The notes: generated by a model not told the origin, from the sequence alone. Shown: positions 1 to 37,981, counted from the first letter of the stretch. The stretch is 64,000 nt of DNA from an archaeon (GCA_029258825.1 JAPDKA010000001.1:35548-99547), one strand, 5' to 3'. A program made the numbers and translations.

Positions 1-873
1 CTTTCTTAAGAGGGTACCATTTTTCAGGATTTAAAGATCCTAGAGGAAACTTATCTGTTGGCTTTGGTAATAAATCTTTTGGATTGCCCTCCAATTCACA
101 ATATTCCATAATTCTTTTTAATTCTTTTTCGGGATTTTTTAAAAAATTCTCTAATTTAACTACTAAACCTTTTTTTAGATACTCTAAGTCTCTCAAAGCA
201 ATCTTGTAAGTATTTCTCCAATGTTCGGCGGCCAATTTAACTTTTTCTTCTAATGGAAGGCTTCTTAAGTTTTCAGATATTGAATTTGAATAATCTCGAC
301 TTGCAACTCTCCAACAAATCGCATAAGGATTCCTCATAACAAGAATGAATTTTGCATCAGGGAATATTTTGTTCAAAAATCTTATTTTTAAGGAAAATAT
401 TTGTGATTTATCTAGGAATCTCGCTTTTTTTAAATTTATAGCGTAAGCTCTAATAAGATTTTTTATTATTTTTTTAAAAGTTTCTCCTTCTTTTTTCACA
501 TAATTTTTTTCATTCACATAATACTTCTTTACTAAATTATCTGTGGCGTACCCCCACCAGAATGCAGTCTTTCCGAAAATTTCTTCTTCTTTGTCTCTTC
601 CTTCTGGAAAGCTTGACAAACTCTTAGGAATTTTAGGTAAGAATGTTTGCAAACTTATCTCGTCTTGGTATGCCCAAAAATTTTTATTTCCTCTCATATG
701 AACGATAAAAGGATGTCTCTTTAGGCATCTAACAATTACCGATAAACCACCTCCCTGGACTCCTATAAAAAAAATAGGTTTATTCACTTTTATACTTTTA
801 AGAGGAATGTATAATCTTCTTAGTGTAAAATAGGGCAAAAGCTTCCAATATATTCTATTTAATAGTCCTAATA
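1..873 (-). CDS. sulfotransferase-family protein (partial, runs off the window edge)
   Basis: Reverse-strand ORF starts at ATG 871-873 (MKIKEVLGLLNRIYW), GGAGGG upstream, no stop before position 1. Has a P-loop-like GVQGGGLSVIVRCLKRHP and a VMRNPYAICWR (RNP) segment resembling the 5'-PSB/3'-PB motifs of Sulfotransfer_3. Not in the ORF track because it is truncated. Confidence 0.4.
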
Positions 874-885
874 CCTCTTTAATTT

Positions 886-2037
886 TCATTTTTCCCTCCA
901 AATCTTCTCGTAAAATTTTGTTATTTCTTTTGCATGTTTTTCCCAGGGGAACTTTTCTACCAATTTTCTTGCATTTTTACCCATTTTTTCAGCTTCTTTT
1001 GGATTATCATAAAAATATTTTATTTTTTCTTTTATTGCTTTGACATCTCTTATAGGAATTACAAATCCTTCTTTTCCGTCTCTTACTATAGAACCGCTGT
1101 TAAATGTTACAACTAGAGGCAATCCACTCGCCATAGCTTCATAAGTAACAAGCGCGGAACCTTCTTCTATTGAAGGGAAAACGAAAATATCTGAAATTTT
1201 ATAATATTTTTTAGGATCATCGTATCCTGTAAAGATTATTGATTTGCTTTTTTCATATCTTTTTACTATCTTTTTTGCATCTGAGCATATATTTCCAACA
1301 ATTATTAATTCAGCATTTTTTAATTTTAATTCGTCCCATGCCTTAAGTAAATAAGATATCCCCTTTCGTATAGTCACTTGTCCAACAAATAAAGCCCTAA
1401 ACTTGTGATCTTTTTTTTCTTTTACTGGAGGATATTTATCCAAATCTACTCCGAATGGGATTCTAATTAATTTTTCTTTTGGAAAATTATTTTCTAAAAA
1501 ACTTTTTTCGGCGAATTCTGAAGGAATTATTATATAATCTGCATTTTTTAGCTCCCATAAAACTCTCTCGAGCATTTTTTTTGAAAATACCTTTATTTCA
1601 ATGTTATACTTTTTATATTCTTCTTCTATAAGTTTTTTTTGAGTTAAGGGATGGGATGAAGCGTTTGTTACTATTATTTTTGCTCCCAATTTCCTAGCTT
1701 TAATTATTTGTTTTTTTGAAGTATTTCTCCAACCATGAAAGATGTCGCATTTTTCGATTTTTTTTGATGCCAATAAATCGAAACTTGAATCTATCCAGTA
1801 ATAAGAAAAAAATTTGTTTGAGATGTATTTTTCTATAAATCTTAATGGATATCTAAAAAAGTACTTATGAATTCTTATAGTCCTAACTATTTTTTTAGAG
1901 ATTTCACCCGGAAAATAATCCTCACAAATTATTTTTTTTACGTACCCTTTTTTAACGGCATCTAAGATTTGATTATAGGCTGTATTTCCAATGCCTCCTC
2001 CATTAAGAGTAACTCCAATAGAGTAAATTATTTCCAT
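886..2037 (-). CDS. glycosyltransferase family 1 (GT4-type)
   Basis: 383 aa; C-terminal EEGSALVTYEAMASGLPLVVT = GT1 E-x7-E motif region; GT-B architecture. Confidence 0.75.
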   Translation of the reverse strand: MEIIYSIGVTLNGGGIGNTAYNQILDAVKKGYVKKIICEDYFPGEISKKIVRTIRIHKYFFRYPLRFIEKYISNKFFSYYWIDSSFDLLASKKIEKCDIFHGWRNTSKKQIIKARKLGAKIIVTNASSHPLTQKKLIEEEYKKYNIEIKVFSKKMLERVLWELKNADYIIIPSEFAEKSFLENNFPKEKLIRIPFGVDLDKYPPVKEKKDHKFRALFVGQVTIRKGISYLLKAWDELKLKNAELIIVGNICSDAKKIVKRYEKSKSIIFTGYDDPKKYYKISDIFVFPSIEEGSALVTYEAMASGLPLVVTFNSGSIVRDGKEGFVIPIRDVKAIKEKIKYFYDNPKEAEKMGKNARKLVEKFPWEKHAKEITKFYEKIWREK

Positions 2038-2957
2038 TTTATTAAATGTTTATATTTATTTTTGTGTTTTTGTATTACTTCTGGAAAAGATTTATCTATT
2101 TTAACATATTTTATAGGATAATTCTTATTTATAAAATTAATTCCTTTATCGATTTTATTTTTTACTTCTTCTTTATTTTTAAGTTCATTTTTATCAAATT
2201 CGAAATGAGCAAAATTTTCTAACTTTTGTATTATTCTTTCAGCCCCTCCAAGATAAGAAAAGTGCCATCCGCCATCTTTAATTAGAATTTCTTTTTTTAG
2301 CATAGGTTTCATTCTAATTAAAGATAAAAATCTATAAATTATTTTCCAATTCCTTAAATAGTCCATTTTTTTAATTTTTTCTTTTAGTGTTTTGAATGTG
2401 CATGCTTTTGCACATTCCCATTTTTCTTCTGTCAATCCATTTAAATAATAATAGTACATTTTTTGTCTGAAACGAATTATCTTTTCTGGATTTTTCTCAA
2501 GAATTTTTTGAGCTTTTTTTATTGCTTCTTTTGAAAAAATTTCATCAGCATCTGAAAGTAAAATAATATCATAATCTTTAGCATTTTTAAGTCCATTTAT
2601 TAAATAATTCCTTTGTAAAGATTCAATCTTCCACCTTCCAAAGTTTATCTTTCTTAATATTTTTGAAATTATTTCCGATTTGACTTTTTTTTCAACAAAT
2701 CTTTCAAAACAATTTAAAAGTTCTTTTTTTGAAGGTCTATAAATTAAATGAATTATCTTATCACTCCACTTTTTATATCTTTTTTTATTTTTTTTATAAT
2801 AAAGTGGTTTTGGCTTTCCACTATGGGTAACTGTAGATTCACAAATAACAAAATAATCAACAGCATCATACAATTCGCTTAATCTAATTTCTAATAAATC
2901 AAGTTCATTAAAAAAGGGAAAACAATCATAAATCTTTGATTTATTTCTCTTTTTCAT
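2028..2957 (-). CDS. glycosyltransferase family 17-like (bisecting GlcNAc transferase-like)
   Basis: N-terminus CFPFFNELDLLEIRLSELYDAVDYFVICESTVTHSGKPKPL matches the Glyco_transf_17 signature (F-NE-D-L-RL...VD-FV-E...G-PKPL); overlaps neighbouring GT genes by a few bp (operon). Confidence 0.55.
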   Translation of the reverse strand: MKKRNKSKIYDCFPFFNELDLLEIRLSELYDAVDYFVICESTVTHSGKPKPLYYKKNKKRYKKWSDKIIHLIYRPSKKELLNCFERFVEKKVKSEIISKILRKINFGRWKIESLQRNYLINGLKNAKDYDIILLSDADEIFSKEAIKKAQKILEKNPEKIIRFRQKMYYYYLNGLTEEKWECAKACTFKTLKEKIKKMDYLRNWKIIYRFLSLIRMKPMLKKEILIKDGGWHFSYLGGAERIIQKLENFAHFEFDKNELKNKEEVKNKIDKGINFINKNYPIKYVKIDKSFPEVIQKHKNKYKHLIKWK

Positions 2958-4098
2958 TTGTTATTGCTCTTAAATATTTTTTTCCCCAATTTTCTATTGA
3001 AAATTCTTTTATTTTTTTAAAATTATTTTTTATTATTTTTGTTTTTATTTTTTTATCTTTTAATAGTCTCAAGATCTCTTTTGCTTCTTTTTTTCTAAAA
3101 TTTTTAATAATTAATCCATTTCTTTTATTTTTTATTATTTCTTGATTCGAATCTTCTGAACAAATTGGAATAACTCCAGAGGCCATCGCCTCCGCGAGAG
3201 TTAAAATAGGGGCTCCTCCCTCATATCTAGAAAAACAAAAGAAAATATCTGAAATTGCATAATAATCTGCTAATTCGTCTCTTTTAAGAACAGGAAAATA
3301 TAATACATTTTTTCCTAATTCTTTAATTAATTTAAGATTTTTAGAATTTTTTTCTGGCCCAACAACAATTAACATAAAATTAGGATTTAATTTTAAAATT
3401 TCTTTGGAGATTTTTATTGTTCTGTCCAACCCTTTTCGCCAAAAACCCCCTCTACCAACATAAAGTCCGTAAATTTTATTATTATCTAATTTTAATTTTT
3501 TTAGAATCTTTTTTTTATTTCTTGGTTTAAATTTAAATATATCAACACTACTACGAATAACAATATTTCTTTTTTTTGTCTTATATAAATTATTTATTTC
3601 TTTTTTTACATGTTCTGATACGGAAATAATAGCATCTGCCTTTTTTGTAGGTGGTTTTTCAAGAAAATATCCTAAAACCATATAGAATAATGCTCCCAAC
3701 TTCTCGATAAAATTCTTTCTAGATAAATGGCACTTATAGAAATAATATGCTACTCCATGATAAGTATTTGTAACGTAGCAGGAGGGCTTGAAATATTTGA
3801 GATAGTATCCTGCCATTGCTTGACTATTAATATAATCTACATTTTTAATAGTTTTCAAAATTTTTGTAACTTTTTTAGCATATTTTATTATATTAAATGG
3901 AAAAATTTTCCCAGTCTTTATTTCTATCAATTCTATATCATTCTCTTTAAAATGTTTATTTTCTTTTCCCGGATATAAAACAAGTATTTTAAATTTCTTT
4001 TTTGATTTTTTCAAATATTTAAGAAAGTTCTTTACATATATATTTGTTCCTCCCAAAAACTGCCAATGGGAATCTAAAATAAAACAAATTGTTTTCAT
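2941..4098 (-). CDS. glycosyltransferase family 1
   Basis: 385 aa; RYEGGAPILTLAEAMASGVIPI motif region typical of GT1/GT4. Confidence 0.75.
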   Translation of the reverse strand: MKTICFILDSHWQFLGGTNIYVKNFLKYLKKSKKKFKILVLYPGKENKHFKENDIELIEIKTGKIFPFNIIKYAKKVTKILKTIKNVDYINSQAMAGYYLKYFKPSCYVTNTYHGVAYYFYKCHLSRKNFIEKLGALFYMVLGYFLEKPPTKKADAIISVSEHVKKEINNLYKTKKRNIVIRSSVDIFKFKPRNKKKILKKLKLDNNKIYGLYVGRGGFWRKGLDRTIKISKEILKLNPNFMLIVVGPEKNSKNLKLIKELGKNVLYFPVLKRDELADYYAISDIFFCFSRYEGGAPILTLAEAMASGVIPICSEDSNQEIIKNKRNGLIIKNFRKKEAKEILRLLKDKKIKTKIIKNNFKKIKEFSIENWGKKYLRAITNEKEK

Positions 4099-4149
4099 AA
4101 TAACTACAAATGCCGAATATTTTAAAAAGTTTTAGTTTATTAAAAGATT

Positions 4150-5097
4150 ATGGTTAAAACAAGTATTATCATACCTGTAAAAAATGATGTGTCTATTTAT
4201 AACTGTATTAATTCTATTTTAAAACAAATTAGGTCTAAAAAAGATAGAGAAGTGATAATTGTTAATGATAAAAATTCTGAGGAAGAATTCTCTAAAAATT
4301 TAAAAAAGTTTTGTAAAGAAAAGAAAATAAAATATATTAAAGGGGAAAAACCTGGAGCAGCATTTAATAGAAATAAAGGAATGGCTATTGCAAAAGGAGA
4401 GAATATCCTTTTTATAGATTCTGATTGCATTGCAGGACCAAATTGGATAAAAAAAATGGAAGATTCATTAAAAGATTATGATATTGTTGAAGGAGCTATA
4501 ATTTATAATTCTCAAGAGAGACCTTTATTTGATCGGGTAATAGAAAATAAAGAAACCCCATATCGATTTTTAACAGCGAATTTAGGAATAAAAAAAGCGG
4601 TAGCAAAGAAATGCTCATTTGATGAAAGATTTATTGTGTTTAGAGAAGATACAGATTTTGGATTATGCGCTTTAGAAAAAGGTTTTAAATCTTTTTTTAA
4701 TAAAGAAGCTAAAGTCTTTCATAAAAAATCCAGGTTTTCTATTAGGGAATTTATTTTTGAAAGAAAAAGATTTATAGGAGATCCTCTTTTATTCAAGAAA
4801 CATCGTTCAAATAAGTTATTAAAAAAACACATTCCAATAATTTGTAGAATTTCTTATCCTTTAGAGCTAATTCTTTTAATTTTTATTTTTATTTCAATAT
4901 TTTTATCATGGAAACTTTTTTTAGTTGCTTATTTTTTCCCTGGAATAATTTATTCTTTAAAAAAATATCTCATAGATAAAAGAACTTTCAAAATTAAGGA
5001 TACTTTTTTAGTAATTTTACTTATTCCCTTAACGATGATTGTTAAAAGAATTTCTATTTGGAGAGGATCTATCAAATTTAAAGTTTTACTTATCTAA
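4150..5097 (+). CDS. glycosyltransferase family 2 with C-terminal transmembrane segments
   Basis: IIIPVKNDVSIYNCINSILKQ N-terminal GT-A fold; FIDSDC DxD motif; hydrophobic C-terminus (ILLIFIFISIFLSWKLFLVAYFFPGIIY). Confidence 0.7.
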   Translation: MVKTSIIIPVKNDVSIYNCINSILKQIRSKKDREVIIVNDKNSEEEFSKNLKKFCKEKKIKYIKGEKPGAAFNRNKGMAIAKGENILFIDSDCIAGPNWIKKMEDSLKDYDIVEGAIIYNSQERPLFDRVIENKETPYRFLTANLGIKKAVAKKCSFDERFIVFREDTDFGLCALEKGFKSFFNKEAKVFHKKSRFSIREFIFERKRFIGDPLLFKKHRSNKLLKKHIPIICRISYPLELILLIFIFISIFLSWKLFLVAYFFPGIIYSLKKYLIDKRTFKIKDTFLVILLIPLTMIVKRISIWRGSIKFKVLLI

Positions 5098-5158
5098 ATT
5101 ATTTCTAGTCTGAGAATTTTTCATTTTCTATGTAAATCGTTCTGGAAAACATTCTCCA

Positions 5159-6280
5159 TCATCCTAAAGCTTCTTCGTAGATTTTTTTTAATTTTTTATT
5201 TCTTTTTTTAATAGAAAATTGCCCATTTTTAATTTCTTCTATGCAATTTTTAGCCATTTTTTTTAATAATCTCTCACTTTCGATTAATCTCCTTGTTTTT
5301 TGAATCATTTTTTGTATAATTTCTTTTTCTTTTTTATTGAGAGATTCTCTTTTTAAATCATAGACATTTGAATAAGGGATAATAAATCCTGTTTTGCTAT
5401 CTTTAATTATCTCTTCTCGAGATTCTTTATTTACAGTTACTATTGGGATTCCAAAACTCATAGCTTCTAAAAATGCAAAACCAAAACTATCTGAATATCC
5501 TGGATAGATAAGTATATGAGACTTTTCATACAACTTAAATAGTTCTTGTTGCGGAATTAAAGGATAAAAACTAATTTTCTTATTTTTTGAATATTTCTTT
5601 TGTATTCTATCAGGTATTGAAGATACAAAAATTCCATAAACATTTTCGTATTTTCTGGTTAATTCATTAATGACTTCTAACGCATGTAATCCCCCTTTTT
5701 GATAGAAATATCTCGCAGAAAAAATAAGATTTATTCTTTCTTTTGGTTTTCTTTTCACTCTTTTTTTGAAAGGAACCGCAGGATAAACCACTTCAATTTT
5801 CTCTTTAATTTCTTTTTCTGGAAAGAATTTTAAGATTTGTTCTTTGACTGTATTTGTCCACGGCATTATTTTTTTACAATATTTTCTCATCAATATTCTT
5901 CTGACAGTATTAATGCTTAATTTAGTTTGTTTTCCTATCCAAAATTGCCATATCCCCTCAAAATCAGCAACCCAAGGTTTTTTATTTAAACTTAAACAAT
6001 GAGCACAGTGAATTAAATCATATTCTTGGTTTGTTGTTGTTAAATGAACATTTGGAATTGATAAGTGCAATTCGGTTAATGTTTGTCTTATTACTTTTTT
6101 TAATTTATTTACAAAAGTAAATTTTCTTTTCGAAATTATAACATCAGGTTTTTCCTTTTTTACATTAACATACTCTATTTCTTTTGGAGGATATTCTATT
6201 AAATATTTATAATAAGGGGAATCTTTGAATCTCCATGGATATTGAAGGAATATTTTCATTTGAAAATTTTTTCTAAACAT
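5159..6280 (-). CDS. glycosyltransferase family 1
   Basis: SDSFGFAFLEAMSFGIPIVTV GT1 motif; 373 aa. Confidence 0.7.
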   Translation of the reverse strand: MFRKNFQMKIFLQYPWRFKDSPYYKYLIEYPPKEIEYVNVKKEKPDVIISKRKFTFVNKLKKVIRQTLTELHLSIPNVHLTTTNQEYDLIHCAHCLSLNKKPWVADFEGIWQFWIGKQTKLSINTVRRILMRKYCKKIMPWTNTVKEQILKFFPEKEIKEKIEVVYPAVPFKKRVKRKPKERINLIFSARYFYQKGGLHALEVINELTRKYENVYGIFVSSIPDRIQKKYSKNKKISFYPLIPQQELFKLYEKSHILIYPGYSDSFGFAFLEAMSFGIPIVTVNKESREEIIKDSKTGFIIPYSNVYDLKRESLNKKEKEIIQKMIQKTRRLIESERLLKKMAKNCIEEIKNGQFSIKKRNKKLKKIYEEALG

Positions 6281-7389
6281 TTAATAAAATTTTCCAATTT
6301 TATTTTTGGTTTATTTTTTATTTTGATTTTTAGTATATTTACTAAAGCCTTTAATATTTCTTTTTTTAAATTTTTGTTTTCTTTTATCCAAATTACATGA
6401 TATTTATTATTTTTTATCAAATTTACATAACCCCCTTTATCAACAGCTATTAAAGGTTTACCACAAGCTAGAAACTCGAAAGGAACGATACCAAAATCCT
6501 CCATAAAAGGAATAAAAATTCCTGCTAAACAATTAGCATAAAGTTTCATTAAATCCTTATCACTGACATTTGTTTTTATTTCAACATTTGGAATTTTTTC
6601 TGCCATTTTTTTAACTTTATTAAAATACTTTCTATTTTCTATACTCCCAACTAAAATAAGCTTATATTGAAAGTGTTCTTTAACAAATTTTTTCCAAACT
6701 TCAAGTAAGATATCTTGTCTTTTATTATAATTAAACCTTGCAACATACAAAAAATAATTTCCTCTTTTTGTCTTTAATTTTTTAAATTTTTCAACATTAA
6801 CAGAGGGATAAACAACATAAATTTTTTTTCTTTCCAACAGACCATGCTTTTTAGCTCTCTCTAAGCTTAATTCGCTATTAAAAATAACAACATCTATTCT
6901 TTTCCATGCTAATTTTTCAAGAATTCTATAAATTTTTACAGCTATTAAATAAATAATTTTAACTAAGGGATTTTTAAACCTATACTTTAAATTCCACTTA
7001 ACGTCATCTTCATAAGCTGCTCTCAAAATTGTATGCACATAAGCATAAGTTTTTCCTGGTTTGTAATTTCTAAAAGTTATTAATTCTGCCAATCCGGCAG
7101 TTGAAATCAAAAAAATATCATATTTTTTAAGAGGGATTTTTGAAAATAAAGAAATAAAAAAAAACAACCCTCTTAAAATATAAAACCTCGCAAAATATTT
7201 TACCCATGTTGGAGCTATAACCTTAATCTTAAATTTCTTAAATTCGTCAAAAGTATTAGCCTTATCATACACCCATGTATAAATATCTACTTTATGCTCT
7301 GTATTTTTGGCAAATTCTAAAATAACTCTCTCTGCGCCACCTTTACTTTTTATCCAGGGATGAAATAAAGCAATTTTTAGTGGACACAT
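6256..7389 (-). CDS. glycosyltransferase family 1
   Basis: EDFGIVPFEFLACGKPLIAVDKGG GT1 motif; 377 aa; overlaps downstream GT by 25 bp. Confidence 0.7.
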   Translation of the reverse strand: MCPLKIALFHPWIKSKGGAERVILEFAKNTEHKVDIYTWVYDKANTFDEFKKFKIKVIAPTWVKYFARFYILRGLFFFISLFSKIPLKKYDIFLISTAGLAELITFRNYKPGKTYAYVHTILRAAYEDDVKWNLKYRFKNPLVKIIYLIAVKIYRILEKLAWKRIDVVIFNSELSLERAKKHGLLERKKIYVVYPSVNVEKFKKLKTKRGNYFLYVARFNYNKRQDILLEVWKKFVKEHFQYKLILVGSIENRKYFNKVKKMAEKIPNVEIKTNVSDKDLMKLYANCLAGIFIPFMEDFGIVPFEFLACGKPLIAVDKGGYVNLIKNNKYHVIWIKENKNLKKEILKALVNILKIKIKNKPKIKLENFIKCLEKIFK

Positions 7390-7473
7390 TTCATTTTTGG
7401 TTTAATTTTTGTTATGTATTTAATTATTAACTCTTGATACTTTAACATTTTTAAACCTTGCTCGGAAGCAAAA

Positions 7474-10194
7474 CTAAGAAGTAAATTGCAAACCATCGAG
7501 TTCTGCCCACTCTCCTCGTGTCTTTACAAACTCTGGTCTAGCGATAATGCTATCCGGATAGTTAATTTTCCATATTTTGATTGGACCTCTTAAACCATAA
7601 TAATTAAGTAAATCGCTACTAAATGGCTGCTGCTGTTTTATAGCTTCAATAACAGGATCTTGTTGACTATGCACCAATACAAATGCATCTTTATATTGAT
7701 TAAGTAAAGTGCCATTAAACAAATAAAGCTGTGCAAATAAACTATTAAATACTTTACTGCTCAACCATAAAGCCGATCCTATTGTTTTTAGCTTATTATT
7801 TTGTATAGATGGAATAATATATAGACAACCGTCCAGCATTGTTTGATTACTTGTAAAGCTGTACAGTTGTCCATTAAGCCAAACCTTAGCAATAGGTATT
7901 TTTATCTGTTTGTCTTTGAATATGACAACAGCATATGGTTGTTGTATGCTTCCATTTCTTGTTACAGGCATAACAAAACCTGCAATAACTGCCTTCTGCT
8001 TTGGAATAAGTATTGAATTATAAACAAAATCATCATCAAGCAATGTTCCACCAACATAAACATAATAAGTTGCATTAGCAGTTTCGTAGGTTTGCTTTTC
8101 ATCAAGATTAAATGTTGTAATCCAACTAAATCTGTCTTCCCCTGTTTCGTCACTACCGATCTTGCTATATGCAGAGTATTTCCCTATATCTGTTGGATCG
8201 ATAAGCAAGTAACTCACATTGTGAGACTTCATAAAGCTTAATGCTGTTTCCGGATTCGGAGTTGTTAATACATAACGGCCAATTAAGTGGTCCCAATAAC
8301 CAACAGCGTGACCTCCATCAGTTACGGCTGGACGTTGTCCTAAATATTCAACCCAGTAACCATAATCCCACCAGTGTACAAAAATAGCATCCTGTTGCGT
8401 GTTATTTCTAACCCATGCCATAGCCTTCTGCCATTGTAAATTAGCAGAAGGTGCTGTATGTTTAGCTTGTAATTTACTAGAACTAACAAAATCTGCAAAG
8501 CTAATAAGCAGGCCTATAACAGTAAATACAACCACAATCCACAATAAAATTTTAGCTAATTCGTCTTTATTAGTTTTTGCGTAATCAAAAACCTTCACTA
8601 TGAAAAAGCTTGCAGAAAAACAAACAAGAGGTGTAATAACAAAAAACAACCTGATTGCACCCCTAGCAGAGATTAGCATGAAGAATGCCCAACTAGCAAT
8701 GATAGCGAGTGATGTGTTTAACTTGATATCATCTTTGAAATACACCCATACAGCGTATGCTAAAAATACAACTAAGCCGAAAAAATAAACAAACTGGCTT
8801 ATTGCATTTTCACCATTTAGTACAGCTCTCGCTGAAATCCTACTGAAAATTAAGCAAGCAAGCATGATTAGCCAGACTAAAGAAAAAGCTATCTTGTTTT
8901 TGTTTTGTTTAATTAGCTTAGCAATCTCTATGCCTATTACAAACATACCAGCAAAAAATAACCAGAAAAACAACTTACCTGTTTGAGCAATCCAATCAAC
9001 AAGATATGGTTGTTGGTTTTCTGCAACAGTCAAACTAACTCTTCCTAAACCAAAAGGATGAAGCAACCTCAACTTAATATCGCTCAATATTGTAATTGGA
9101 TTTTTGCCAGCCATAGCTAAAAGTGAAAAACCAATAACTAGTGTGATAATAAAAGAAATTATAGGCCTGTATTGTTCAAGATTGCCAAGATTGCCTTTAT
9201 TCTTGCGATTTAATAAAAAATAATCAATAACAGTAAAAACAAACACAAAACCAGTTAACATAACATTAGAGCCAAGTAAAATCTTGTTAAGAGTAACACT
9301 AAAAGAATAACCATAAAGTTTTGTAATAACTATGCTAAATAACAACCATGAAGCATAAAAAATTAGCAGCCTCTTGTTTAAATCGGATTTAATTGTGCGT
9401 TTAGGTTGATTGATTACAAGCCAGATCAATAAAAAACTAAGTGGAATTATCATAAATACAAAATTAGCAATACCCCCCCAACTAGCAATTGTAAATGATG
9501 ATAAAATTGCTAAAGCAAAACCAAGCACAATACTAAACCAAACTTGAGAAATTTGAGCTTTATTTTTAATTTGTTTATTTATAATTACATCGATAAATAC
9601 AGCATAACAAAGTAAAGTTAAAAAAAATGCAAACATACCTATTGCTTCGTGATCAGAAAAACCTGCCATGGTTCTGTAAAGATAAGCAGGACTAAAGCTA
9701 AGAAAAGCTGTGCTAAGTAATGCTATTAACTTTGATTTTGTCAAATACATAATAAGAAAGAAAAATACAAACATACCTAAAACAAAAAATATGACTGGTA
9801 ATATAACATCAACGAATTCTATAGTTATATCTTTATCAAAAGTGCTCAACAGCTTATAGAAAAAAACAATTGCACGAGGCATTATTTCATGGGTAAAGCC
9901 AACTTTAGCGGCAGGATAACGCATAGCATCATAATCAGGTAAAGAACCATTAAGCATAAGTTTAGCTACCCTCAAGAAATAGAACGGATCTAATGCAAGA
10001 GGAATATATTTATTGGTGGTTACATCTTTAAGCAAAGGTAAATTAAGTAATCTTATATAACATGCAAAAATAAGAATAAAAAGCAAAGCTATAACAAGTA
10101 ATATATTCGCTAATTTTTTATTTTTAAAAATAGTAACGATGCTATGTTTTACTTTTTCTTGCTTGATATTTTGTGTATTTTCGCTTTGCTGCAT
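7474..10194 (-). CDS. aglB: archaeal oligosaccharyltransferase AglB (STT3 family)
   Basis: 906 aa, ~13 N-terminal TM helices, catalytic WWDYGYW motif (HWWDYGYWVEYLG), large C-terminal soluble domain; terminates with TAG. Confidence 0.9.
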   Translation of the reverse strand: MQQSENTQNIKQEKVKHSIVTIFKNKKLANILLVIALLFILIFACYIRLLNLPLLKDVTTNKYIPLALDPFYFLRVAKLMLNGSLPDYDAMRYPAAKVGFTHEIMPRAIVFFYKLLSTFDKDITIEFVDVILPVIFFVLGMFVFFFLIMYLTKSKLIALLSTAFLSFSPAYLYRTMAGFSDHEAIGMFAFFLTLLCYAVFIDVIINKQIKNKAQISQVWFSIVLGFALAILSSFTIASWGGIANFVFMIIPLSFLLIWLVINQPKRTIKSDLNKRLLIFYASWLLFSIVITKLYGYSFSVTLNKILLGSNVMLTGFVFVFTVIDYFLLNRKNKGNLGNLEQYRPIISFIITLVIGFSLLAMAGKNPITILSDIKLRLLHPFGLGRVSLTVAENQQPYLVDWIAQTGKLFFWLFFAGMFVIGIEIAKLIKQNKNKIAFSLVWLIMLACLIFSRISARAVLNGENAISQFVYFFGLVVFLAYAVWVYFKDDIKLNTSLAIIASWAFFMLISARGAIRLFFVITPLVCFSASFFIVKVFDYAKTNKDELAKILLWIVVVFTVIGLLISFADFVSSSKLQAKHTAPSANLQWQKAMAWVRNNTQQDAIFVHWWDYGYWVEYLGQRPAVTDGGHAVGYWDHLIGRYVLTTPNPETALSFMKSHNVSYLLIDPTDIGKYSAYSKIGSDETGEDRFSWITTFNLDEKQTYETANATYYVYVGGTLLDDDFVYNSILIPKQKAVIAGFVMPVTRNGSIQQPYAVVIFKDKQIKIPIAKVWLNGQLYSFTSNQTMLDGCLYIIPSIQNNKLKTIGSALWLSSKVFNSLFAQLYLFNGTLLNQYKDAFVLVHSQQDPVIEAIKQQQPFSSDLLNYYGLRGPIKIWKINYPDSIIARPEFVKTRGEWAELDGLQFTS

Positions 10195-10231
10195 GTTTAA
10201 ACAACAAATAACTAATTTTAAAATTTTTGCT

Positions 10232-10747
10232 TTAAAGTACTTGCTGCTCTAATAGCTGTCTAAAAACTAACTTGAAATCTGGACAAAATTTTTCTTGATG
10301 TTCTTGTAGCATTAGTTTCAACTTGTCTAAAGGCACAAACATGCCGGAAGCAACTTCATGTGTATTGATTTTTGGCTCTTGATCAATATTGTATGCTATA
10401 AATACAGCTGCAAATTCATACATGTTTTCTTTACAAGGAGGAAAAACCTTGATAAGCTTGAGCTGTTGTGGTTTTAAGTCTATACCAAGTTCTTCTTTAA
10501 TCTCACGTAAGGCTGCCTGCTCGTAAGACTCGCCTATATCAACATGGCCACCTACACTAAAACCAAATAAACCAGGATAAATATCTTTATTTAATGCTCG
10601 TTGCTGAATAAACAACTCGTTCTTGCTGTTAAACAACAATATTTGTACAGATCTGTGATAAAGCTTCCTTTGATGTATCACGCTGCGTTTCTCTATACCT
10701 ATAACATTATTATTTTCATCAACAATTTCAAGCAATTCGTCGTCCAT
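10232..10747 (-). CDS. NUDIX hydrolase
   Basis: Nudix box GGHVDIGESYEQAALREIKEELGI (GX5EX7REUXEEXGU). Confidence 0.7.
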   Translation of the reverse strand: MDDELLEIVDENNNVIGIEKRSVIHQRKLYHRSVQILLFNSKNELFIQQRALNKDIYPGLFGFSVGGHVDIGESYEQAALREIKEELGIDLKPQQLKLIKVFPPCKENMYEFAAVFIAYNIDQEPKINTHEVASGMFVPLDKLKLMLQEHQEKFCPDFKLVFRQLLEQQVL

Positions 10748-10774
10748 ATTAAGCTATGAAGTTTAATGAAAAAA

Positions 10775-10846
10775 TGCGCCGGCCGGGATTCGAACCCGGG
10801 TCACCGGCTTGGAAGGCCGGGGTCCTAACCACTAGACTACCGGCGC
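10775..10846 (-). tRNA. tRNA-Gly (anticodon UCC)
   Basis: Reverse complement folds as a cloverleaf: acceptor GCGCCGG/CCGGCGC, anticodon stem CCGGC-loop CUUCCAA-GCCGG, T-loop GGGUUCGAAUCCCGG, discriminator A. GC-rich island in AT-rich DNA. Confidence 0.85.
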
Positions 10847-10904
10847 GCAACTAAGAAATAATGCGGTGAAGAGTTTTTAAAATTTATCAATAAGCAATAA
10901 AAAA

Positions 10905-11195
10905 TTAATCAATACTGCAAGAATTAATACTGCATGCTGTGTTTGTTTGATTGCTTGTTTGGTTGGTTGTTTGATTCAAGCTTGCTGTGTTTTTATTTTG
11001 CGGCAACCAATCAAGTTTTATTGCATGCAAAGCAAGTGTTTTTATGTTGCTAGCTGTTTGCTTTAACCAACTTGCTAAAGCAGAAAAGAATACTTGCCTA
11101 TCTTGTTGCTGCTTAAGATTTAAGTTATAGCTAACTATAATTGAAAAACAACCTATAACAAAAAAACCGATTAGTAATAACTGTAGCAGCCTCAT
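10905..11195 (-). CDS. hypothetical small membrane-anchored protein
   Basis: 96 aa ORF between two tRNAs; N-terminal hydrophobic helix, Q/N/T-rich tail; no recognisable motif. Confidence 0.25.
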   Translation of the reverse strand: MRLLQLLLIGFFVIGCFSIIVSYNLNLKQQQDRQVFFSALASWLKQTASNIKTLALHAIKLDWLPQNKNTASLNQTTNQTSNQTNTACSINSCSID

Positions 11196-11234
11196 TTTAG
11201 CTATTTTTGTTTAGTTTTTATTTAAGCATAAAAG

Positions 11235-11309
11235 TGGGCCCGGCAGGATTTGAACCTGCGACCCCTACGTTATCAGCGTAGTGCTCTAACCAGGCTGAGC
11301 TACGGGCCC
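11235..11309 (-). tRNA. tRNA-Ile (anticodon GAU)
   Basis: Reverse complement GGGCCCGUAGCUCAGCCUGGUUAGAGCACUACGCUGAUAACGUAG...GGUUCAAAUCCUGCCGGGCCCA; anticodon loop CUGAUAA. Confidence 0.85.
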
Positions 11310-11367
11310 ACAAAAATAAAACTATAATTTGTTTTTTAAATATTTCTGTGCAAAGTACAACAAAAAA

Positions 11368-12210
11368 TTATCCTGCTTTAATACTTTCAACTATCTCGCG
11401 CATTTTAATAGCATCTTTATCAAGCAAAGGGGATTCACAAATAATCGTAAATTTATAGTTTTTCTCTACTATTAACTCTGCAAGAGGCTTAAAGTCAGGC
11501 TGCTTCCTCGCTATTGGTAAATGTTGTTTTTCACCTTTCGCAGTAAAACTTACACTGCTAAAATGGCAATGTAATGCTTCAAGATATTTTTTGCCTAATT
11601 CATCTTTTATCTTTTTGATGATTGATTCATAGTCTGATTTTGACTTTATGCAACCATTATTTCTTGCGTGAATATGTGCAAAATCAATTACTGGCTTGAC
11701 AAATTTTAACTTTTTGCTTAACCATATTATTTCATCAAGAGTGCCAACCTGCAATGGCTTGCCTGTTGTTTCTGCACCAAGCCAAACTTCAATAGCATTA
11801 TCTTGCATTTTTTCTTGCAATTGCTTTAACAACTCATATACATTAGTTAATGCTTGTTCCTGCGTTAGGTTTTGATAATAACCGGGATGAAACACTACAA
11901 TTGATGCGTTAATTAACGCTGCTGCCTGCACAGATTGCCACAGATTGCGAAAACTAATCTGTTGTTTTTCTTCCAGCGGACTTGCGGCATTTATCCAATA
12001 AGGCGCATGCGCGCTTAACAAAATATCGTGTTGTTTTGCTATCTGTTTGGCTTTTATTGCTACTTGTTTGTTTAGTCTAACACCCCTAACCCATTCAATC
12101 TCAAAAGCAAGAAGTTTATGTTTAGCGCAATACAACAACCCTTCTGGCAATGCTTTTCCTTTTAAAGACAAAGGCATACCTGCTGGGCCGAATCTAAGCT
12201 TTGCTGCCAT
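11368..12210 (-). CDS. nfo: AP endonuclease family 2 / endonuclease IV-like TIM-barrel protein
   Basis: SAHAPYWINAASP (Nfo HAPYLINLAS-like), IVVFHPGYY (FHPG), DFAHIHARNNG, EALHCHFSSVS in Nfo-like order. Confidence 0.5.
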   Translation of the reverse strand: MAAKLRFGPAGMPLSLKGKALPEGLLYCAKHKLLAFEIEWVRGVRLNKQVAIKAKQIAKQHDILLSAHAPYWINAASPLEEKQQISFRNLWQSVQAAALINASIVVFHPGYYQNLTQEQALTNVYELLKQLQEKMQDNAIEVWLGAETTGKPLQVGTLDEIIWLSKKLKFVKPVIDFAHIHARNNGCIKSKSDYESIIKKIKDELGKKYLEALHCHFSSVSFTAKGEKQHLPIARKQPDFKPLAELIVEKNYKFTIICESPLLDKDAIKMREIVESIKAG

Positions 12211-12211
12211 C

Positions 12212-12661
12212 TTAGCTAGGCATGTTCTGCACTATGTAAAGATGTAGTTTCTTTATTGTATATTCCTGTAATGCTTCTTTAAGCCATCCATGACAGTATT
12301 CAAGTTTTTCCTGTGGCATAAAACTGCCTGCTTCTGCATAAGGCACAATGCAAGTCATGTCTTTTCCTTCAACGTCAACCACAATACCCAGTTCTGCTTT
12401 CTCAAACTTAATATTTTTCACATAAACCATACAACCTTGCTTAGTAGCTCTTACAATCTTGAAATACCATTTTCCATCGTTGTAAACAGCTCTGTTGCAA
12501 TTATACAATGCATTCAAAAAACACTGTTCATCACTGCACGTAGTGTAGCTAAATTGATAAACAATTCCTGCAATCAAAAACAATACTGCTAGCACGATAA
12601 GCCAGAAAACAACCTTTCTGTTTTTCTTGTTTTGCTTAAGTTTTATTTTTTTCTTTTTCAT
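12212..12661 (-). CDS. hypothetical membrane-anchored Cys-containing protein
   Basis: 149 aa; K-rich N-terminus then a single TM helix (VVFWLIVLAVLFLIAGIVY); 7 Cys in the extracytoplasmic part. Confidence 0.35.
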   Translation of the reverse strand: MKKKKIKLKQNKKNRKVVFWLIVLAVLFLIAGIVYQFSYTTCSDEQCFLNALYNCNRAVYNDGKWYFKIVRATKQGCMVYVKNIKFEKAELGIVVDVEGKDMTCIVPYAEAGSFMPQEKLEYCHGWLKEALQEYTIKKLHLYIVQNMPS

Positions 12662-12703
12662 TTCACCTCTTTTTATTTAGTTGAACAGTAAAAGCATGAC
12701 CAA

Positions 12704-13144
12704 TCAATAAGTAATGGTTTTATCCAATGTGAGTTGTTTTTCTTTTTGCTCTTCTGTATGATTTGTGCTGTTATCATCAACATCATCAATTTTGATTACC
12801 TCAACATCTTCAGGCAAATCTTGATTTTGTTCCTGCGTTTGTTCAGCCATATCTTGCTGTTCTTCTTGTTCCATTGTCTGTGTTTGCTGTTCTTGTGTTT
12901 GTTCTTCCTGCCCTTCGCTCACTTCTTTATTTTCAGCTATGCCTATTTCGCTTTCATTAACATTATCTTCTTGTGCCTGCTTAAGTTTCTTACTGATCTC
13001 TGCAAGTAAGTCAAGCAAAGAAGATGCTGCTGTGTCGCTAATTTGCCCTTCTTCTTTTTGCATCTCTATCTCTGCAACTAAATCGTCGAGTAATGCTTCA
13101 ATCTCCACAAGCAGATCTTCACGTATTTGCATATAAATAAACAA
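12704..13144 (-). CDS. hypothetical acidic E/Q-rich protein
   Basis: 146 aa, highly acidic low-complexity (EQTQEQQTQTMEQEEQQDMAEQTQEQ); coding status uncertain. Confidence 0.3.
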   Translation of the reverse strand: MFIYMQIREDLLVEIEALLDDLVAEIEMQKEEGQISDTAASSLLDLLAEISKKLKQAQEDNVNESEIGIAENKEVSEGQEEQTQEQQTQTMEQEEQQDMAEQTQEQNQDLPEDVEVIKIDDVDDNSTNHTEEQKEKQLTLDKTITY

Positions 13145-13194
13145 TAAGTAGACTTTTTAAATCTTATTTTCGGTTTTTATCGACAAAAAAGCAA

Positions 13195-13776
13195 TTAGTT
13201 TTTGCCTCTTATCAAATTTTTAACAAAACTTGCAAGTTTCTCAACTTTTGCTCGTCGTTTTGCGTAGAGTTGTTTTACCTTTTCGTAATTGCCTCTTGCT
13301 ATTCCTATCATAAGCAATTCGTAAAATGCTCTTCCGATTATTTCGTGCAGTACAGCCCTACGTCGAATTTTATCATTAGCTTCAAATGTTGTTACAAACT
13401 TAAATTTGTCTAGCCAAGCTCTGCCATAAACTTTACTTAAGCCATATGCTGCACGCTTTACGTGAAAGTCATCAGTTACAACAATTGCTCTCGCATTAGG
13501 GTCTTTTAAAACATCATAAAAAGAAAGTGCGTTTTCTATAGTATTTCTTGCATATTCAACTTTTGCTCCTTGGATGTAAGGAGCAAACTCTCTCAAGCGA
13601 GGATCATCATATAGGCCTGTTATATTTACACTAGCATCATGCTGTTCAGGCGTATTAAATCCTGTAAAGATGATTCTATCTGGTGCTAATCCAAGCTTAG
13701 TTAAAACTTCTAGGCCTTTCTTAATCCTTCTTTTTGATGGTCTTTCATCACCGCTATATATGATAAGGTATATCAT
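13195..13776 (-). CDS. DUF218 (YdcF/SanA-like) domain protein
   Basis: IVVTDDFHVKRAAY resembles the DUF218 VTSxYHMPRA core; 193 aa. Confidence 0.45.
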   Translation of the reverse strand: MIYLIIYSGDERPSKRRIKKGLEVLTKLGLAPDRIIFTGFNTPEQHDASVNITGLYDDPRLREFAPYIQGAKVEYARNTIENALSFYDVLKDPNARAIVVTDDFHVKRAAYGLSKVYGRAWLDKFKFVTTFEANDKIRRRAVLHEIIGRAFYELLMIGIARGNYEKVKQLYAKRRAKVEKLASFVKNLIRGKN

Positions 13777-13794
13777 TTTAGCATAGACTTTTAG

Positions 13795-14811
13795 TTATAT
13801 AATCAGCCAAACTGCAACGCAAATTACAACAACAAACTGTAGGAGCAATAAAAATGCCACAACGTCTTGCTCTGTTACTCTGTTTTTTATCGATTTTAGT
13901 AGTTTAATTGTAGCATGCGTAACACTATATATGTATTTGTATGGCTCATGCAGATAACCTTGCTTATCGAGTTTTGCAAAATTTTCTGCCTTAAACTTAC
14001 TTCTTGCTTTTAGAAATCCTTCTATAACAAAAGGAATAAACATAAACAAAGCGAGCTTTTCAACATTGCCTAAAATAGCAAAACAAGCAATCAAACTGCC
14101 GACAGTAAAAGTTAAACTATCTCCTGGAAACACTTTTGATGGATACTTATTGAATATTAAAAATGCTAACAGCGAGAAAAACATGGCCAAGGCAATTAAT
14201 GCTAACCAGTATTGTTTAGTATAAACAAAAATAAAACTAAAACCAAGCATGATTATACTTGCTAGTCCTGCTTCCAAACCATTATAACCTGCAAGCAAAT
14301 TAAAACCATTTGTGAATCCAACAACGAGCAATGGCACAATAACTAAGCTGTATGCTATACCAAAATTCACAGGCCCGATAAATGGAATTGACATAGTTGT
14401 GTTGCCCAACCTTAATACAGCAAGAGGGATTGCAATTGGTATTGTTGTAACTAACTTTTTCCATCCACCAAGACCTTTCTTCCAACCCAACACATCATCA
14501 ATAAAACCGATGAAGCAAGCAAGCGTGACTGTAACTGTCAAAGCCAAAACTTCAACAAAATGAGTTACGCTTTTCAATATAAAAGTCTTGAGAAAGAAAT
14601 ATACAAAAAGCGAAAGCAAAAAAGCAATAAACACAGCAACGCCACCAGCTTCGGCAACTTCATGTTTGGTTTGTTTGTTCATATCAAAGCCGACAAGCTT
14701 ATTAGCTTTAGCAAGATTTATCCACGCTTTGGTTAGCATAAAACTTGCAAAAAATGAGATACATACATACAGCAATCCAAACACAATGTTGCCTATAGTT
14801 ATTCCATCCAT
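13795..14811 (-). CDS. UDP-GlcNAc:dolichyl-phosphate GlcNAc-1-phosphate transferase-like (MraY/WecA/AglH family)
   Basis: Polytopic membrane protein; LVGFDMNKQTKHEVAEAGGVAV (D-x-NK...K...GG) and GFIDDVLG (DDxxD) motifs typical of polyprenyl-phosphate N-acetylhexosamine-1-P transferases. Confidence 0.65.
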   Translation of the reverse strand: MDGITIGNIVFGLLYVCISFFASFMLTKAWINLAKANKLVGFDMNKQTKHEVAEAGGVAVFIAFLLSLFVYFFLKTFILKSVTHFVEVLALTVTVTLACFIGFIDDVLGWKKGLGGWKKLVTTIPIAIPLAVLRLGNTTMSIPFIGPVNFGIAYSLVIVPLLVVGFTNGFNLLAGYNGLEAGLASIIMLGFSFIFVYTKQYWLALIALAMFFSLLAFLIFNKYPSKVFPGDSLTFTVGSLIACFAILGNVEKLALFMFIPFVIEGFLKARSKFKAENFAKLDKQGYLHEPYKYIYSVTHATIKLLKSIKNRVTEQDVVAFLLLLQFVVVICVAVWLII

Positions 14812-14912: not shown

Positions 14913-15368
14913 ATGGGGATAAAAAAAACGTCGCTTAAGTTAGACGATTTAGATAAAGCAACAAAAAATGCATTGAAAAATTGTATAAAAGAATTAAAAA
15001 CAAAACCGTATGTAGTAGGTATTTATTTATTTGGTTCTCATGCAAAAAGAAAAACACATAAGTTGTCGGATGTTGACATTGCCATAGTGACTAAAGAAAT
15101 TAGCTATAAACAACACAACAGGATAAAGCTTTATTTGTACAGCTTTTCTACAGATAGATTAGATGTAAGTTGGTTTAATGAATTGCCTGCATATATTCAA
15201 AAGGAAGTGCTTTGTAATGGAAAACTTATATTTGTTAAAGACCGTTTTAAACTTGCTGAAATAACATCCAAACATATCAAAATAGCCATAGAATTTGAGA
15301 ATAGAGCGAAAAAAATTGATACCAGAATAATAGATAAATATAATAAATACCATAATAAATACAAATAA
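14913..15368 (+). CDS. minimal nucleotidyltransferase (MNT/MntA-like antitoxin)
   Basis: GIYLFGSHAKRKTHKLSDVDIAIV = GS-x9-13-DxD nucleotidyltransferase motif. Confidence 0.7.
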   Translation: MGIKKTSLKLDDLDKATKNALKNCIKELKTKPYVVGIYLFGSHAKRKTHKLSDVDIAIVTKEISYKQHNRIKLYLYSFSTDRLDVSWFNELPAYIQKEVLCNGKLIFVKDRFKLAEITSKHIKIAIEFENRAKKIDTRIIDKYNKYHNKYK

Positions 15369-15369
15369 A

Positions 15370-15798
15370 ATGAGAATTTCGAAAATCATTAAAGATATTG
15401 ACAGCTATTTGGAAGATCTCGCTGAGATATTGCCAAACGATGAAGAAGAACTAAAAAGAAATAAAGAAAAACGATATTCAACAGCATTTCTTGTAGAGTG
15501 CGTAATTAGTGGGTGCATAGACTTGGGATTTGAAATTGTAAGCATACTAGGTTTGGCATATCCAGCAACTTACAAACAGTTATTCGAGTTATTAGAAAAG
15601 AAAAAGATAATAACAAAAACTGTTGCCGATAAACTTAAAGAACTAGTCGGTTTAAGAAATATCATTGCACACCATTACACAAAAATTGATACTGAGCTAT
15701 TGTTTGAAAAAGCAAAATATATGATAGAATCAGGAATAATTGAAAAGTTTTTAGCACAAATAATAAAAAAATTAAAAGATAAAAACATTGGAATTTAA
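15370..15798 (+). CDS. HepT-like HEPN toxin (DUF86)
   Basis: LRNIIAHHY = R-x4-HxY HEPN/DUF86 motif; start 2 nt after the MNT stop (coupled pair). Confidence 0.7.
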   Translation: MRISKIIKDIDSYLEDLAEILPNDEEELKRNKEKRYSTAFLVECVISGCIDLGFEIVSILGLAYPATYKQLFELLEKKKIITKTVADKLKELVGLRNIIAHHYTKIDTELLFEKAKYMIESGIIEKFLAQIIKKLKDKNIGI

Positions 15799-15826
15799 TT
15801 TCAACTTGATTTCTGATTTTTATTCT

Positions 15827-16636: not shown

Positions 16637-16675
16637 TTTGTTTTGTTTTTGTTTTAGCTTTATCTTACTTTATTT

Positions 16676-37978: not shown

Positions 37979-37981
37979 ACT

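Follow-up and report, generated by a model that had tools for sequence, protein, structure and literature searches.

The first 15 kb of a 64,000-nt stretch of archaeal DNA (GCA_029258825.1 JAPDKA010000001.1:35548-99547; the whole stretch is called the window below) are best read as an aglB-anchored N-glycan assembly locus of a tiny-celled DPANN archaeon of the Pacearchaeota/Woesearchaeota type, in which the position right after aglB, the gene of the oligosaccharyltransferase, is a slot for glycan genes. We put the probability of this reading, together with the assembly mechanism and the slot described below, at roughly 0.7. Judged from gene order and protein identities, comparison with related loci shows the slot to be lineage-wide and its cassettes to be interchangeable, and one such cassette is found in the window, with a length of 9.5 kb or more and an unusually strong drop of 7-8 points in G+C content (GC). 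The analysis covers the open reading frames (ORFs), Pfam and NCBIfam profile matches, tRNA genes and hydrophobic segments of the first 15 kb, and a comparison set of about 85 loci, namely 80 aglB loci from species-representative genomes and five contigs obtained through protein look-ups. An earlier note on this DNA had proposed an N-glycosylation island of foreign or hypervariable composition with a sulfated product, and on the whole that interpretation is partly supported.

Gene content of the aglB locus

AglB is the sole STT3 protein in the window. Its N-terminal half spans the membrane many times, with about 13 hydrophobic segments, and its catalytic motifs are HWWDYGYW at residues 606-613 (WWDYG at 607-611) and the DK motif DIGK at 668-671, the residues of WWDYG and DIGK being invariant across 25 homologues. 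These homologues reach at best 52% identity and all come from metagenome-assembled genomes of Pacearchaeota, Woesearchaeota or Nanoarchaeota. The sulfotransferase and the GT17-like protein have database entries of 100% identity, both on an NCBI contig of 205 kb, and the window's own AglB seems to be missing from that index. In the order of transcription on the minus strand, AglH (an initiating polyprenol-phosphate N-acetylhexosamine (HexNAc)-1-phosphate transferase) is followed by a DUF218 gene, two hypothetical genes, a TIM-barrel gene, tRNA-Ile, a small ORF of 96 aa, tRNA-Gly, a NUDIX gene and AglB itself. After AglB come the glycosyltransferase (GT) genes GT4d and GT4c, then GT2 on the plus strand, then GT4b, a GT17-like gene, GT4a and a Sulfotransfer_3 gene. 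The gene list of the earlier note, with AglB (WWDYGYW), four GT1 genes, a GT17-like gene, an opposite-strand GT2 gene, a sulfotransferase at the window edge and AglH 3.6 kb away, was recovered in full where the note had placed it; its wording that the GT genes precede aglB holds for coordinates, while in transcription they lie downstream of it.

The cassette runs past the start of the window, which cuts the sulfotransferase gene. A Logan contig of 8,074 nt (L086) is 100% identical to window positions 1-5996 and reaches 2,078 nt beyond the window start, adding the remainder of the sulfotransferase (339 aa in total), a GT9-family gene and a gene of an FkbM-type methyltransferase, all at 26-29% GC. 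The window therefore does not contain the whole of the low-GC island, which measures 9.5 kb or more; the far boundary lies beyond both the window and L086, and an exact-DNA scan of JGI metagenomes made in search of it gave no match. Seven GT genes, the sulfotransferase gene and the methyltransferase gene cluster with aglB within 9.5 kb downstream of it, all on its strand except the GT2 gene (six of the seven GTs on the same strand). The genes overlap inside each minus-strand unit, the sulfotransferase start overlapping the GT4a stop as ATGA, which suggests co-transcription in two units.

The four GT4 proteins, the GT17-like and GT9 proteins, the sulfotransferase and the methyltransferase have no hydrophobic segments; GT2 alone carries them, at its C-terminus, and is probably of the polyprenol-phosphate sugar synthase type. 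By the Pfam threshold the GT17-like protein belongs to the CAZy family GT17, that of MGAT3-like beta-1,4-GlcNAc transferases, and all of its listed homologues carry PF04724. More than 4,000 of these homologues are metagenomic and some are labelled Woesearchaeota; the idea that the gene might be a rare eukaryote-like feature was dropped on account of these environmental homologues, annotated Woesearchaeota proteins among them. No window protein reaches the cut-off of a named Agl or Pgl equivalog in NCBIfam, so that sugar specificities cannot be assigned.

Compositional break at the aglB stop codon

The GT block was described in the earlier note as more AT-rich than aglB and the housekeeping genes, and the GC and codon profile bears this out, composition being far from uniform with a break at the aglB stop. 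The block at 886-7389 has 25.1% GC, against 33.3% in the rest of the window, and the lowest-GC segments of 6.5 kb in the whole 64 kb all start at 251-1501. Its dinucleotide deviation (delta* x 1000) is 240-270, the strongest in the window, against 20-80 over most of it. Among 66 ORFs the five lowest values of GC at third codon positions (GC3) belong to the five genes at 2028-7389 (0.142-0.175); GC at the first and second positions (GC1 and GC2) is depressed too, and the fraction of the amino acids F, Y, M, I, N and K (FYMINK) is 0.47, compared with 0.34. In 400-nt windows the change in GC, from about 0.26 up to about 0.33, falls at the aglB stop codon and the 84-nt spacer beside it, at about 7.3-7.5 kb.

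The block had also been called laden with poly-A/T. Runs of at least six A/T are indeed 2.8 times denser there (13.4 per kb, against 4.8 per kb elsewhere); over composition-matched shuffles, however, the excess is 3.2-fold in the block and 2.7-fold elsewhere, so that the runs are not a separate signal and were rejected as such, their excess being mainly an effect of base composition. Just 3' of the aglB stop there is a hairpin of 5 bp (TTGCT-TCCG-AGCAA, window 7451-7476), and next to it a TTTAAAAA stretch about 55 nt upstream of the GT4d start; the two may be a terminator/promoter pair that divides aglB from the cassette. Integration linked to a tRNA gene was considered and rejected, since tRNA-Gly and tRNA-Ile are both on the upstream side of aglB, where GC is normal, and stand more than 3 kb away from the break.

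Conserved core and variable slot in relatives

In the relatives the order upstream of aglB is kept, with the ribosomal spc operon, SecY, an EMC3-like gene, prefoldin, IF-2B, SpoIIM, AglH and AglB. In 41 of 54 loci fewer than 300 nt separate the end of AglH from aglB, and in 48 of 52 SpoIIM is the gene directly before AglH. Compared with the gene that immediately precedes aglB in relatives, AglH of the window shows 41-47% identity. These data show a SpoIIM-AglH-AglB core that appears to be inherited vertically. The window itself departs from it at two places. A 3.6-kb block of genome-average GC (10232-13776) splits AglH from AglB, and its proteins match nothing in any of the 80 relatives' loci; by this comparison the gap is a derived interruption of an ancestral adjacency. 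Between SpoIIM and AglH (14913-18679) lie an MNT/HepT toxin-antitoxin pair and the alpha and beta genes of a 2-oxoacid:ferredoxin oxidoreductase (POR), equally without a match in any relative's locus. The window has no ribosomal operon/SecY block, which in relatives stands before SpoIIM; CDC48, ThyX, SMC and RNase HII are found instead.

The slot directly after aglB is filled by glycan genes in essentially all relatives, and the sets differ. Among 150 downstream ORFs from 22 loci, there are 34 of the GT1 group, 14 GT2, about 19 methyltransferases, 12 NAD-epimerases/dehydratases, 11 UDP-GlcNAc 2-epimerases, 8 FkbM methyltransferases and several radical-SAM enzymes, and single loci add NeuB/CMP-sugar genes, acetyltransferases or deacetylases. 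The gene that comes first after aglB was classified in 66 loci, of which 21 have an epimerase there, 9 a GT4d-like gene and 36 a gene of another kind. Cassette type, taken from this first gene, has no association with AglB similarity (p = 0.65), which we count as support for shuffling. Comparison with related agl clusters, as the earlier note had suggested, thus finds aglB kept and the sets of GT and sugar-modification genes different, the GT set of the window not recurring in all relatives.

The genes of the window's cassette are shared to very different degrees. Best conserved is GT4d: about 12 of the 80 relatives have an orthologue (50-73% identity), which is usually placed directly after aglB. 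GT4c has a homologue of 38-55% in 27 relatives, at a varying distance from aglB. Orthologue-level matches are found in only 4 of 80 for GT4a and likewise in 4 of 80 for GT4b, and a GT17-like gene is near aglB in 4 of 80 and also in L087, a contig of another DPANN archaeon. For GT2 no orthologue of at least 38% identity is present among the 80 relatives, and the window's sulfotransferase subfamily is absent from all 80 loci. One locus (L031) shares five families in a similar order, without the sulfotransferase or GT9, and in L087 a sulfotransferase/GT4/GT17 module adjoins aglB, GT4a of the window being 40% identical to the gene beside the sulfotransferase homologue there. Sulfotransfer_3/1 genes with canonical GxPRxGT loops lie downstream of aglB in three relatives (L004, L006 and L022), so that sulfotransferases are a recurrent optional component of the slot.

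Three side observations belong here. The core genes are arranged differently in one Pacearchaeota locus (L079, 12636-14785), where the AglH homologue comes after aglB, with the closest GT4d orthologue (70-73%) next in line. Two assemblies have two aglB loci each (L001/L017 in CAZJVQ01, L009/L010 in CAYVGH01); some such archaea may have two oligosaccharyltransferases, or the bins may mix strains. An excess of contig ends downstream of aglB, considered as a sign of strain variability, is not significant (34 downstream, 24 upstream, p = 0.12).

A sulfotransferase-like protein in the cassette

The earlier note had predicted a sulfated N-glycan from the sulfotransferase gene. The fold of the protein can be assigned with confidence from profiles and a structural model. 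The 296-aa fragment in the window scores 51 bits against PF13469 (cut-off 27), and a profile search of the PDB gives the CurM sulfotransferase (ST) domain at E = 4e-10 and also the OLS ST domain and TPST1/2, the match spanning the RxPY of the 3'-phosphate-binding (3'-PB) region and the DKS motif. The AlphaFold2 model, built from an alignment of 41 sequences, has a pLDDT of 91.9 and a pTM of 0.91. In a Foldseek search against the PDB at least the 30 best matches are all sulfotransferases that use 3'-phosphoadenosine 5'-phosphosulfate (PAPS), including Stf9, the CurM ST and TPST1/2, most of them with bound 3'-phosphoadenosine 5'-phosphate (PAP); for the CurM and OLS domains, TPST1/2 and the mycobacterial Stf1/Stf9 the probability is 1.0 and the TM score 0.5-0.65, with an identity of only 15-17%.

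One motif departs from the canonical form and a second does so in part. The 5'-phosphosulfate-binding (5'-PSB) loop, G43-V-Q-G-G-G-L-S50, aligns to SSPRSGST of CurM and is missing the basic residue of PKxGTT/PRSGxT. In the 3'-PB motif RxPxxxxxS, R186 and P188 align to RHPY of CurM and are invariant, and position +8 carries Arg/Lys or other residues in place of the Ser. The Gly-rich loop VQGGGL(S/T) without Arg/Lys is kept in all 41 members of the subfamily, from bacteria and archaea, as are R186, P188, S162, H223 and W224. The closest homologue (51%), that of L087, lies directly after SpoIIM-AglH-AglB and beside GT4a-like and GT17-like genes. In every context examined, the distant members, from Salinibacter, Lentisphaerae and unbinned contigs, belong to clusters of the Wzx/Wzy type or to other sugar-nucleotide/GT clusters. 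One low-GC contig (L092 545-9243, 28% GC) has a 43% homologue beside a UDP-GlcNAc 2-epimerase, a GT4, a heparinase II/III-like protein and a UDP-sugar dehydrogenase, a gene set reminiscent of the synthesis of uronic-acid or glycosaminoglycan-like glycans. A further contig has a bacterial-type polysaccharide cluster with genes of CMP-sugar synthesis, in which a second sulfotransferase gene, of the different family Sulfotransfer_2 (L089 6320-7027), is found two genes away from the Sulfotransfer_3 homologue.

What the protein does is a question of weighing these data. It might not sulfate a glycan at all, being inactive or using the fold for another transfer or for binding. The loop GVQGGGL(S/T), which has no counterpart of the catalytic Arg/Lys in PRSGxT or PKxGTT, and the replaced Ser at +8 speak for this, as does the search for PAPS synthesis: motifs of APS kinase, ATP sulfurylase and PAPS reductase were seen in no six-frame translation of the 64-kb window or of the fetched loci, which hold only a fraction of each genome. 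DPANN genomes are, moreover, metabolically reduced. On the other hand, a variant loop conserved together with R186, P188, S162, H223 and W224 in 41 members points to a functional enzyme under selection, each top structural match is a PAPS sulfotransferase, and the gene is embedded in glycan clusters in every context examined; to judge from the canonical sulfotransferases that related genomes carry in the slot after aglB, the lineage evidently has access to PAPS. We regard the non-sulfating alternative as doubtful, and that the window enzyme sulfates the glycan as somewhat more probable than its opposite. A sulfated N-glycan is accordingly plausible from fold and gene context, which agree, and from the canonical enzymes that fill the same slot in three relatives, but it is unproven; of the earlier prediction, the fold, the contexts and these enzymes stand on one side, and the loop without Arg/Lys and the PAPS-synthesis genes not seen stand on the other. 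A broader proposal, which we offer tentatively and hold to be less likely true than not, is that DPANN archaea of the Pacearchaeota type sulfate their N-glycans by P-loop (PAPS-type) sulfotransferases, the window's version being of a Gly-rich-loop subfamily derived from bacteria. Such enzymes would differ in class from the sulfatase-fold Agl30/Agl31, to date the only sulfotransferases of archaeal N-glycans to have been characterised. Since the reduced genomes probably cannot activate sulfate, PAPS would come from the host or the environment, and the chemistry of the surface glycan would then depend on symbiosis.

Transfer or drift

GC downstream of aglB is lower than that of aglB in 43 of 46 relatives, by 3.2 points on average, and GC upstream equals that of aglB. 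The dip is a lineage-wide property and not a one-off acquisition in this genome, which at -7 points stands at the strong end. In pairwise identity AglB is correlated with AglH (rho 0.59) and uncorrelated with GT4d (rho 0.07), values which come from non-independent comparisons among 12 genomes and are a crude proxy, not a tree reconciliation. GT4d of the window is 70-73% identical to its counterpart in L079, whose AglB is only 41% identical. These identities show GT4d to evolve, as it appears, independently of AglB, and this decoupling together with the turnover of gene content favours an exchange of cassettes, presumably from a shared low-GC pool.

Low GC could instead come from drift in place towards AT, without transfer, in fast-evolving, weakly constrained accessory genes of low expression in an AT-biased genome. 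The dip is systematic in 43 of 46 relatives irrespective of genome GC, and the depressed GC1 and GC2 with the FYMINK fraction of 0.47 (against 0.34) suggest a long-term compositional shift rather than a recent import; other accessory genes of the window, namely the MNT/HEPN toxin-antitoxin pairs and the AAA_14 ATPase, also have low GC, and no mobility genes were seen. However, the relatives differ in gene content and not in sequence alone, GT4d at 70-73% stands beside AglB at 41% in one genome with no correlation of the identities, and the sulfotransferase subfamily is mostly bacterial, so that drift as the sole cause is in our judgement unlikely. The two are not exclusive, since a shared low-GC pool of cassettes exchanged within the lineage would give both patterns, and drift of weakly constrained genes in place probably contributes as well. 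Of the earlier suggestion of horizontal acquisition or a hypervariable locus, the variable gene sets and the decoupled GT4d are in favour, while the lineage-wide dip and the probable share of drift qualify it.

Proposed mechanism and the product of the cassette

The steps of the mechanism are drawn from established knowledge of archaeal N-glycosylation and of the families, whereas families, predicted solubility or anchoring, overlaps and synteny are what the data give directly. AglH would prime dolichol phosphate with HexNAc-1-phosphate. The soluble enzymes GT4d, GT4c, GT4b, GT4a, the GT17-like protein and GT9 would lengthen the lipid-linked glycan at the cytoplasmic face, and the membrane-anchored GT2 would probably make a dolichol-phosphate sugar. 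The FkbM-type methyltransferase and the PAPS-type sulfotransferase-like enzyme would decorate the glycan before it is flipped, and AglB would move the flipped glycan onto Asn of surface proteins. Sequon-rich surface proteins, the candidate targets of glycosylation, were not found in the window.

Several points weigh against this reading of the locus. The link from the GT genes to an N-glycan comes from their adjacency to aglB and is one of guilt by association. No Polysacc_synt/Wzx-like or other candidate flippase is among the Pfam matches of positions 1-15 kb and the 2-kb extension, the left end of the cluster lying beyond this sequence; archaeal flippases are poorly defined. No mobility signature (integrase, flanking repeats) is present at the one visible boundary, that on the aglB side. 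To these are added the crude nature of the rho values and, for the sulfation step, the missing basic residue of the 5'-PSB loop, the replaced Ser of the 3'-PB motif and the PAPS-synthesis genes that were not seen.

It is improbable that the GT block makes some glycoconjugate other than an N-linked one (for instance a glycolipid, lipoglycan, exopolysaccharide or O-glycan) and lies near aglB only because genes for surface glycans use a common dolichol carrier and often cluster: the closest non-DPANN homologues of the sulfotransferase do lie in bacterial Wzx/Wzy-type clusters with Wzz, Wzy and Bac_transf, neither a flippase nor an experimentally defined Agl orthologue at the NCBIfam cut-off was found, and the spacer between aglB and GT4d may divide transcription units, but the visible 9.5-kb cassette has no Wzx, Wzy, Wzz or alternative ligase, so that AglB alone is present there to transfer a glycan, glycan genes fill the slot directly after aglB in essentially all relatives, and AglH, the matching initiating enzyme, is ancestrally adjacent.

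Features of the locus and of the rest of the window

The features of the first 15 kb are collected in Table 1.

Table 1. Genes and other features in the first 15 kb of the window, in order of position
Feature	Position	Strand	Evidence and remarks
Sulfotransfer_3 gene	2-889	-	PF13469, 51 bits (cut-off 27); N-terminal 296 of 339 codons, truncated by the window start; full protein P0121
GT4a, soluble GT4-type (Glycos_transf_1)	886-2037	-	PF00534, 121 bits; GC 0.287; without hydrophobic segments
GT17-like (Glyco_transf_17)	2028-2957	-	PF04724, 95.6 bits (cut-off 26); GC 0.226; GC3 0.142, the window minimum
GT4b, soluble GT4-type	2941-4098	-	PF00534, 86 bits, and PF13439; GC 0.240; opens the second minus-strand unit
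GT2 (Glycos_transf_2), C-terminal hydrophobic segments	4150-5097	+	PF00535, 84 bits; hydrophobic 19-mers at residues 227-305; GC 0.244
GT4c, soluble GT4-type	5159-6280	-	PF00534, 75.6 bits; GC 0.256
GT4d, GT4-type, first gene after aglB	6256-7389	-	PF00534, 87.7 bits; GC 0.248
Intergenic spacer, 84 nt, at the compositional boundary	7390-7473	.	GC in 400-nt windows
AglB/STT3 oligosaccharyltransferase	7474-10194	-	PF02516, PF21436, TIGR04154; GC 0.326
NUDIX, tRNA-Gly, orf96, tRNA-Ile, xylose-isomerase-like TIM barrel, two hypothetical genes, DUF218	10232-13776	-	Pfam and tRNA calls
tRNA-Gly	10775-10846		
tRNA-Ile	11234-11309		
AglH-like polyprenol-phosphate HexNAc-1-phosphate transferase (Glycos_transf_4)	13795-14811	-	PF00953, 117.8 bits; about 10 hydrophobic segments

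Elsewhere in the 64 kb, four genes of MNT-type nucleotidyltransferases are found at 14913-15798, 19765-20789, 37445-38278 and 51009-51834, with GC of 0.25-0.29; the partner is HepT or HEPN at the first two and a small ORF without a Pfam match at the last two. Outside the cassette, only these and an AAA_14/DUF4143 ATPase gene (57395-58651, GC 0.263) are markedly AT-rich in the window. Two paralogues at 36371-37288 and 43408-44460 have near-identical N-termini (M-E-x-x-I-x-I-I-G-N-R-K-x-G-R-L-x-x-L-V-R-E-A-L-D-S-G-L-F-R-R), and between them are two large ORFs of 652 and 482 aa without a Pfam match. In dinucleotide deviation this region of 36-44 kb ranks second (delta* about 130-140), and its skew of G over C is strong, up to 0.54; its proteins show no excess of N-glycosylation sequons (0-2 each). 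The ThyX (Thy1) gene at 24662-26206 encodes 514 aa, about twice the usual length, with two Thy1-matching stretches, and may be a tandem-domain ThyX.

Comparison with known systems

Bacterial O-antigen and capsule loci carry low-GC, laterally exchanged cassettes of GT4, GT2 and sugar-modifying genes at a fixed chromosomal slot. The locus studied here is alike in its fixed slot, and homologues of the window sulfotransferase occur in such clusters; it differs in having no Wzx, Wzy or Wzz, in transferring the glycan, as predicted, by an archaeal STT3/AglB, and in initiation of the AglH type. The window sulfotransferase shares its fold with the CurM and OLS sulfotransferase domains, TPST1/2 and the mycobacterial Stf1/Stf9, with VQGGGL(S/T) in place of PRSGxT and with an acceptor that is presumably a sugar and not a polyketide, tyrosine or trehalose.

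Sulfated N-glycans of archaea have long been known. Agl30 and Agl31 of Halobacterium salinarum, the first sulfotransferases described for archaeal N-glycans, are encoded in an aglB-anchored cluster, belong to the alkaline-phosphatase/sulfatase-like superfamily and act on the dolichol-phosphate-linked glycan, giving a sulfated N-glycan (Zaretsky et al. 2025, PMC11980604). As there, a candidate for a sulfate-adding enzyme is encoded inside an aglB-anchored cluster in the window; unlike Agl30/Agl31, the window protein has the P-loop PAPS-sulfotransferase fold (PF13469) rather than a sulfatase-like one and is thus of a different enzyme class, its activity being predicted only. In Haloferax the 'alternative' N-glycosylation clusters (agl5-agl15) are highly variable in gene content and have 52% G+C against about 65%, which was read as lateral transfer (Shalev et al. 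2018, PMC5867893). The likeness to the window is that of a variable archaeal N-glycosylation cluster with G+C well below that of the genome, linked in Haloferax to serotype-like diversity of the surface. The Haloferax cluster, however, is not aglB-anchored and often carries orc1 or other traces of mobile elements, whereas here the cassette lies directly downstream of aglB, no mobility genes are visible, and the host is a DPANN archaeon with an AT-rich genome.

A 2024 review names DPANN once, as a major archaeal group, and does not mention sulfotransferases, and in the literature on DPANN and AglB we found no description of agl clusters of Pacearchaeota. The layout is already known from other archaea, and the finding is real but fairly ordinary. 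Modestly new are a non-canonical sulfotransferase of the PAPS fold linked to an archaeal oligosaccharyltransferase, and a lineage-wide low-GC slot after aglB in DPANN archaea. These do not overturn the current understanding. They add candidate enzymes for new N-glycan chemistry, namely the non-canonical PAPS-type sulfotransferase and the GT17-like and GT9-like transferases linked to the archaeal oligosaccharyltransferase, and they extend to DPANN archaea the pattern of haloarchaea and of bacterial O-antigen loci. The slot should give serotype-like diversity of the cell surface, and in episymbionts, which depend on contact and are exposed to viruses, such diversity may set the specificity for host and virus.

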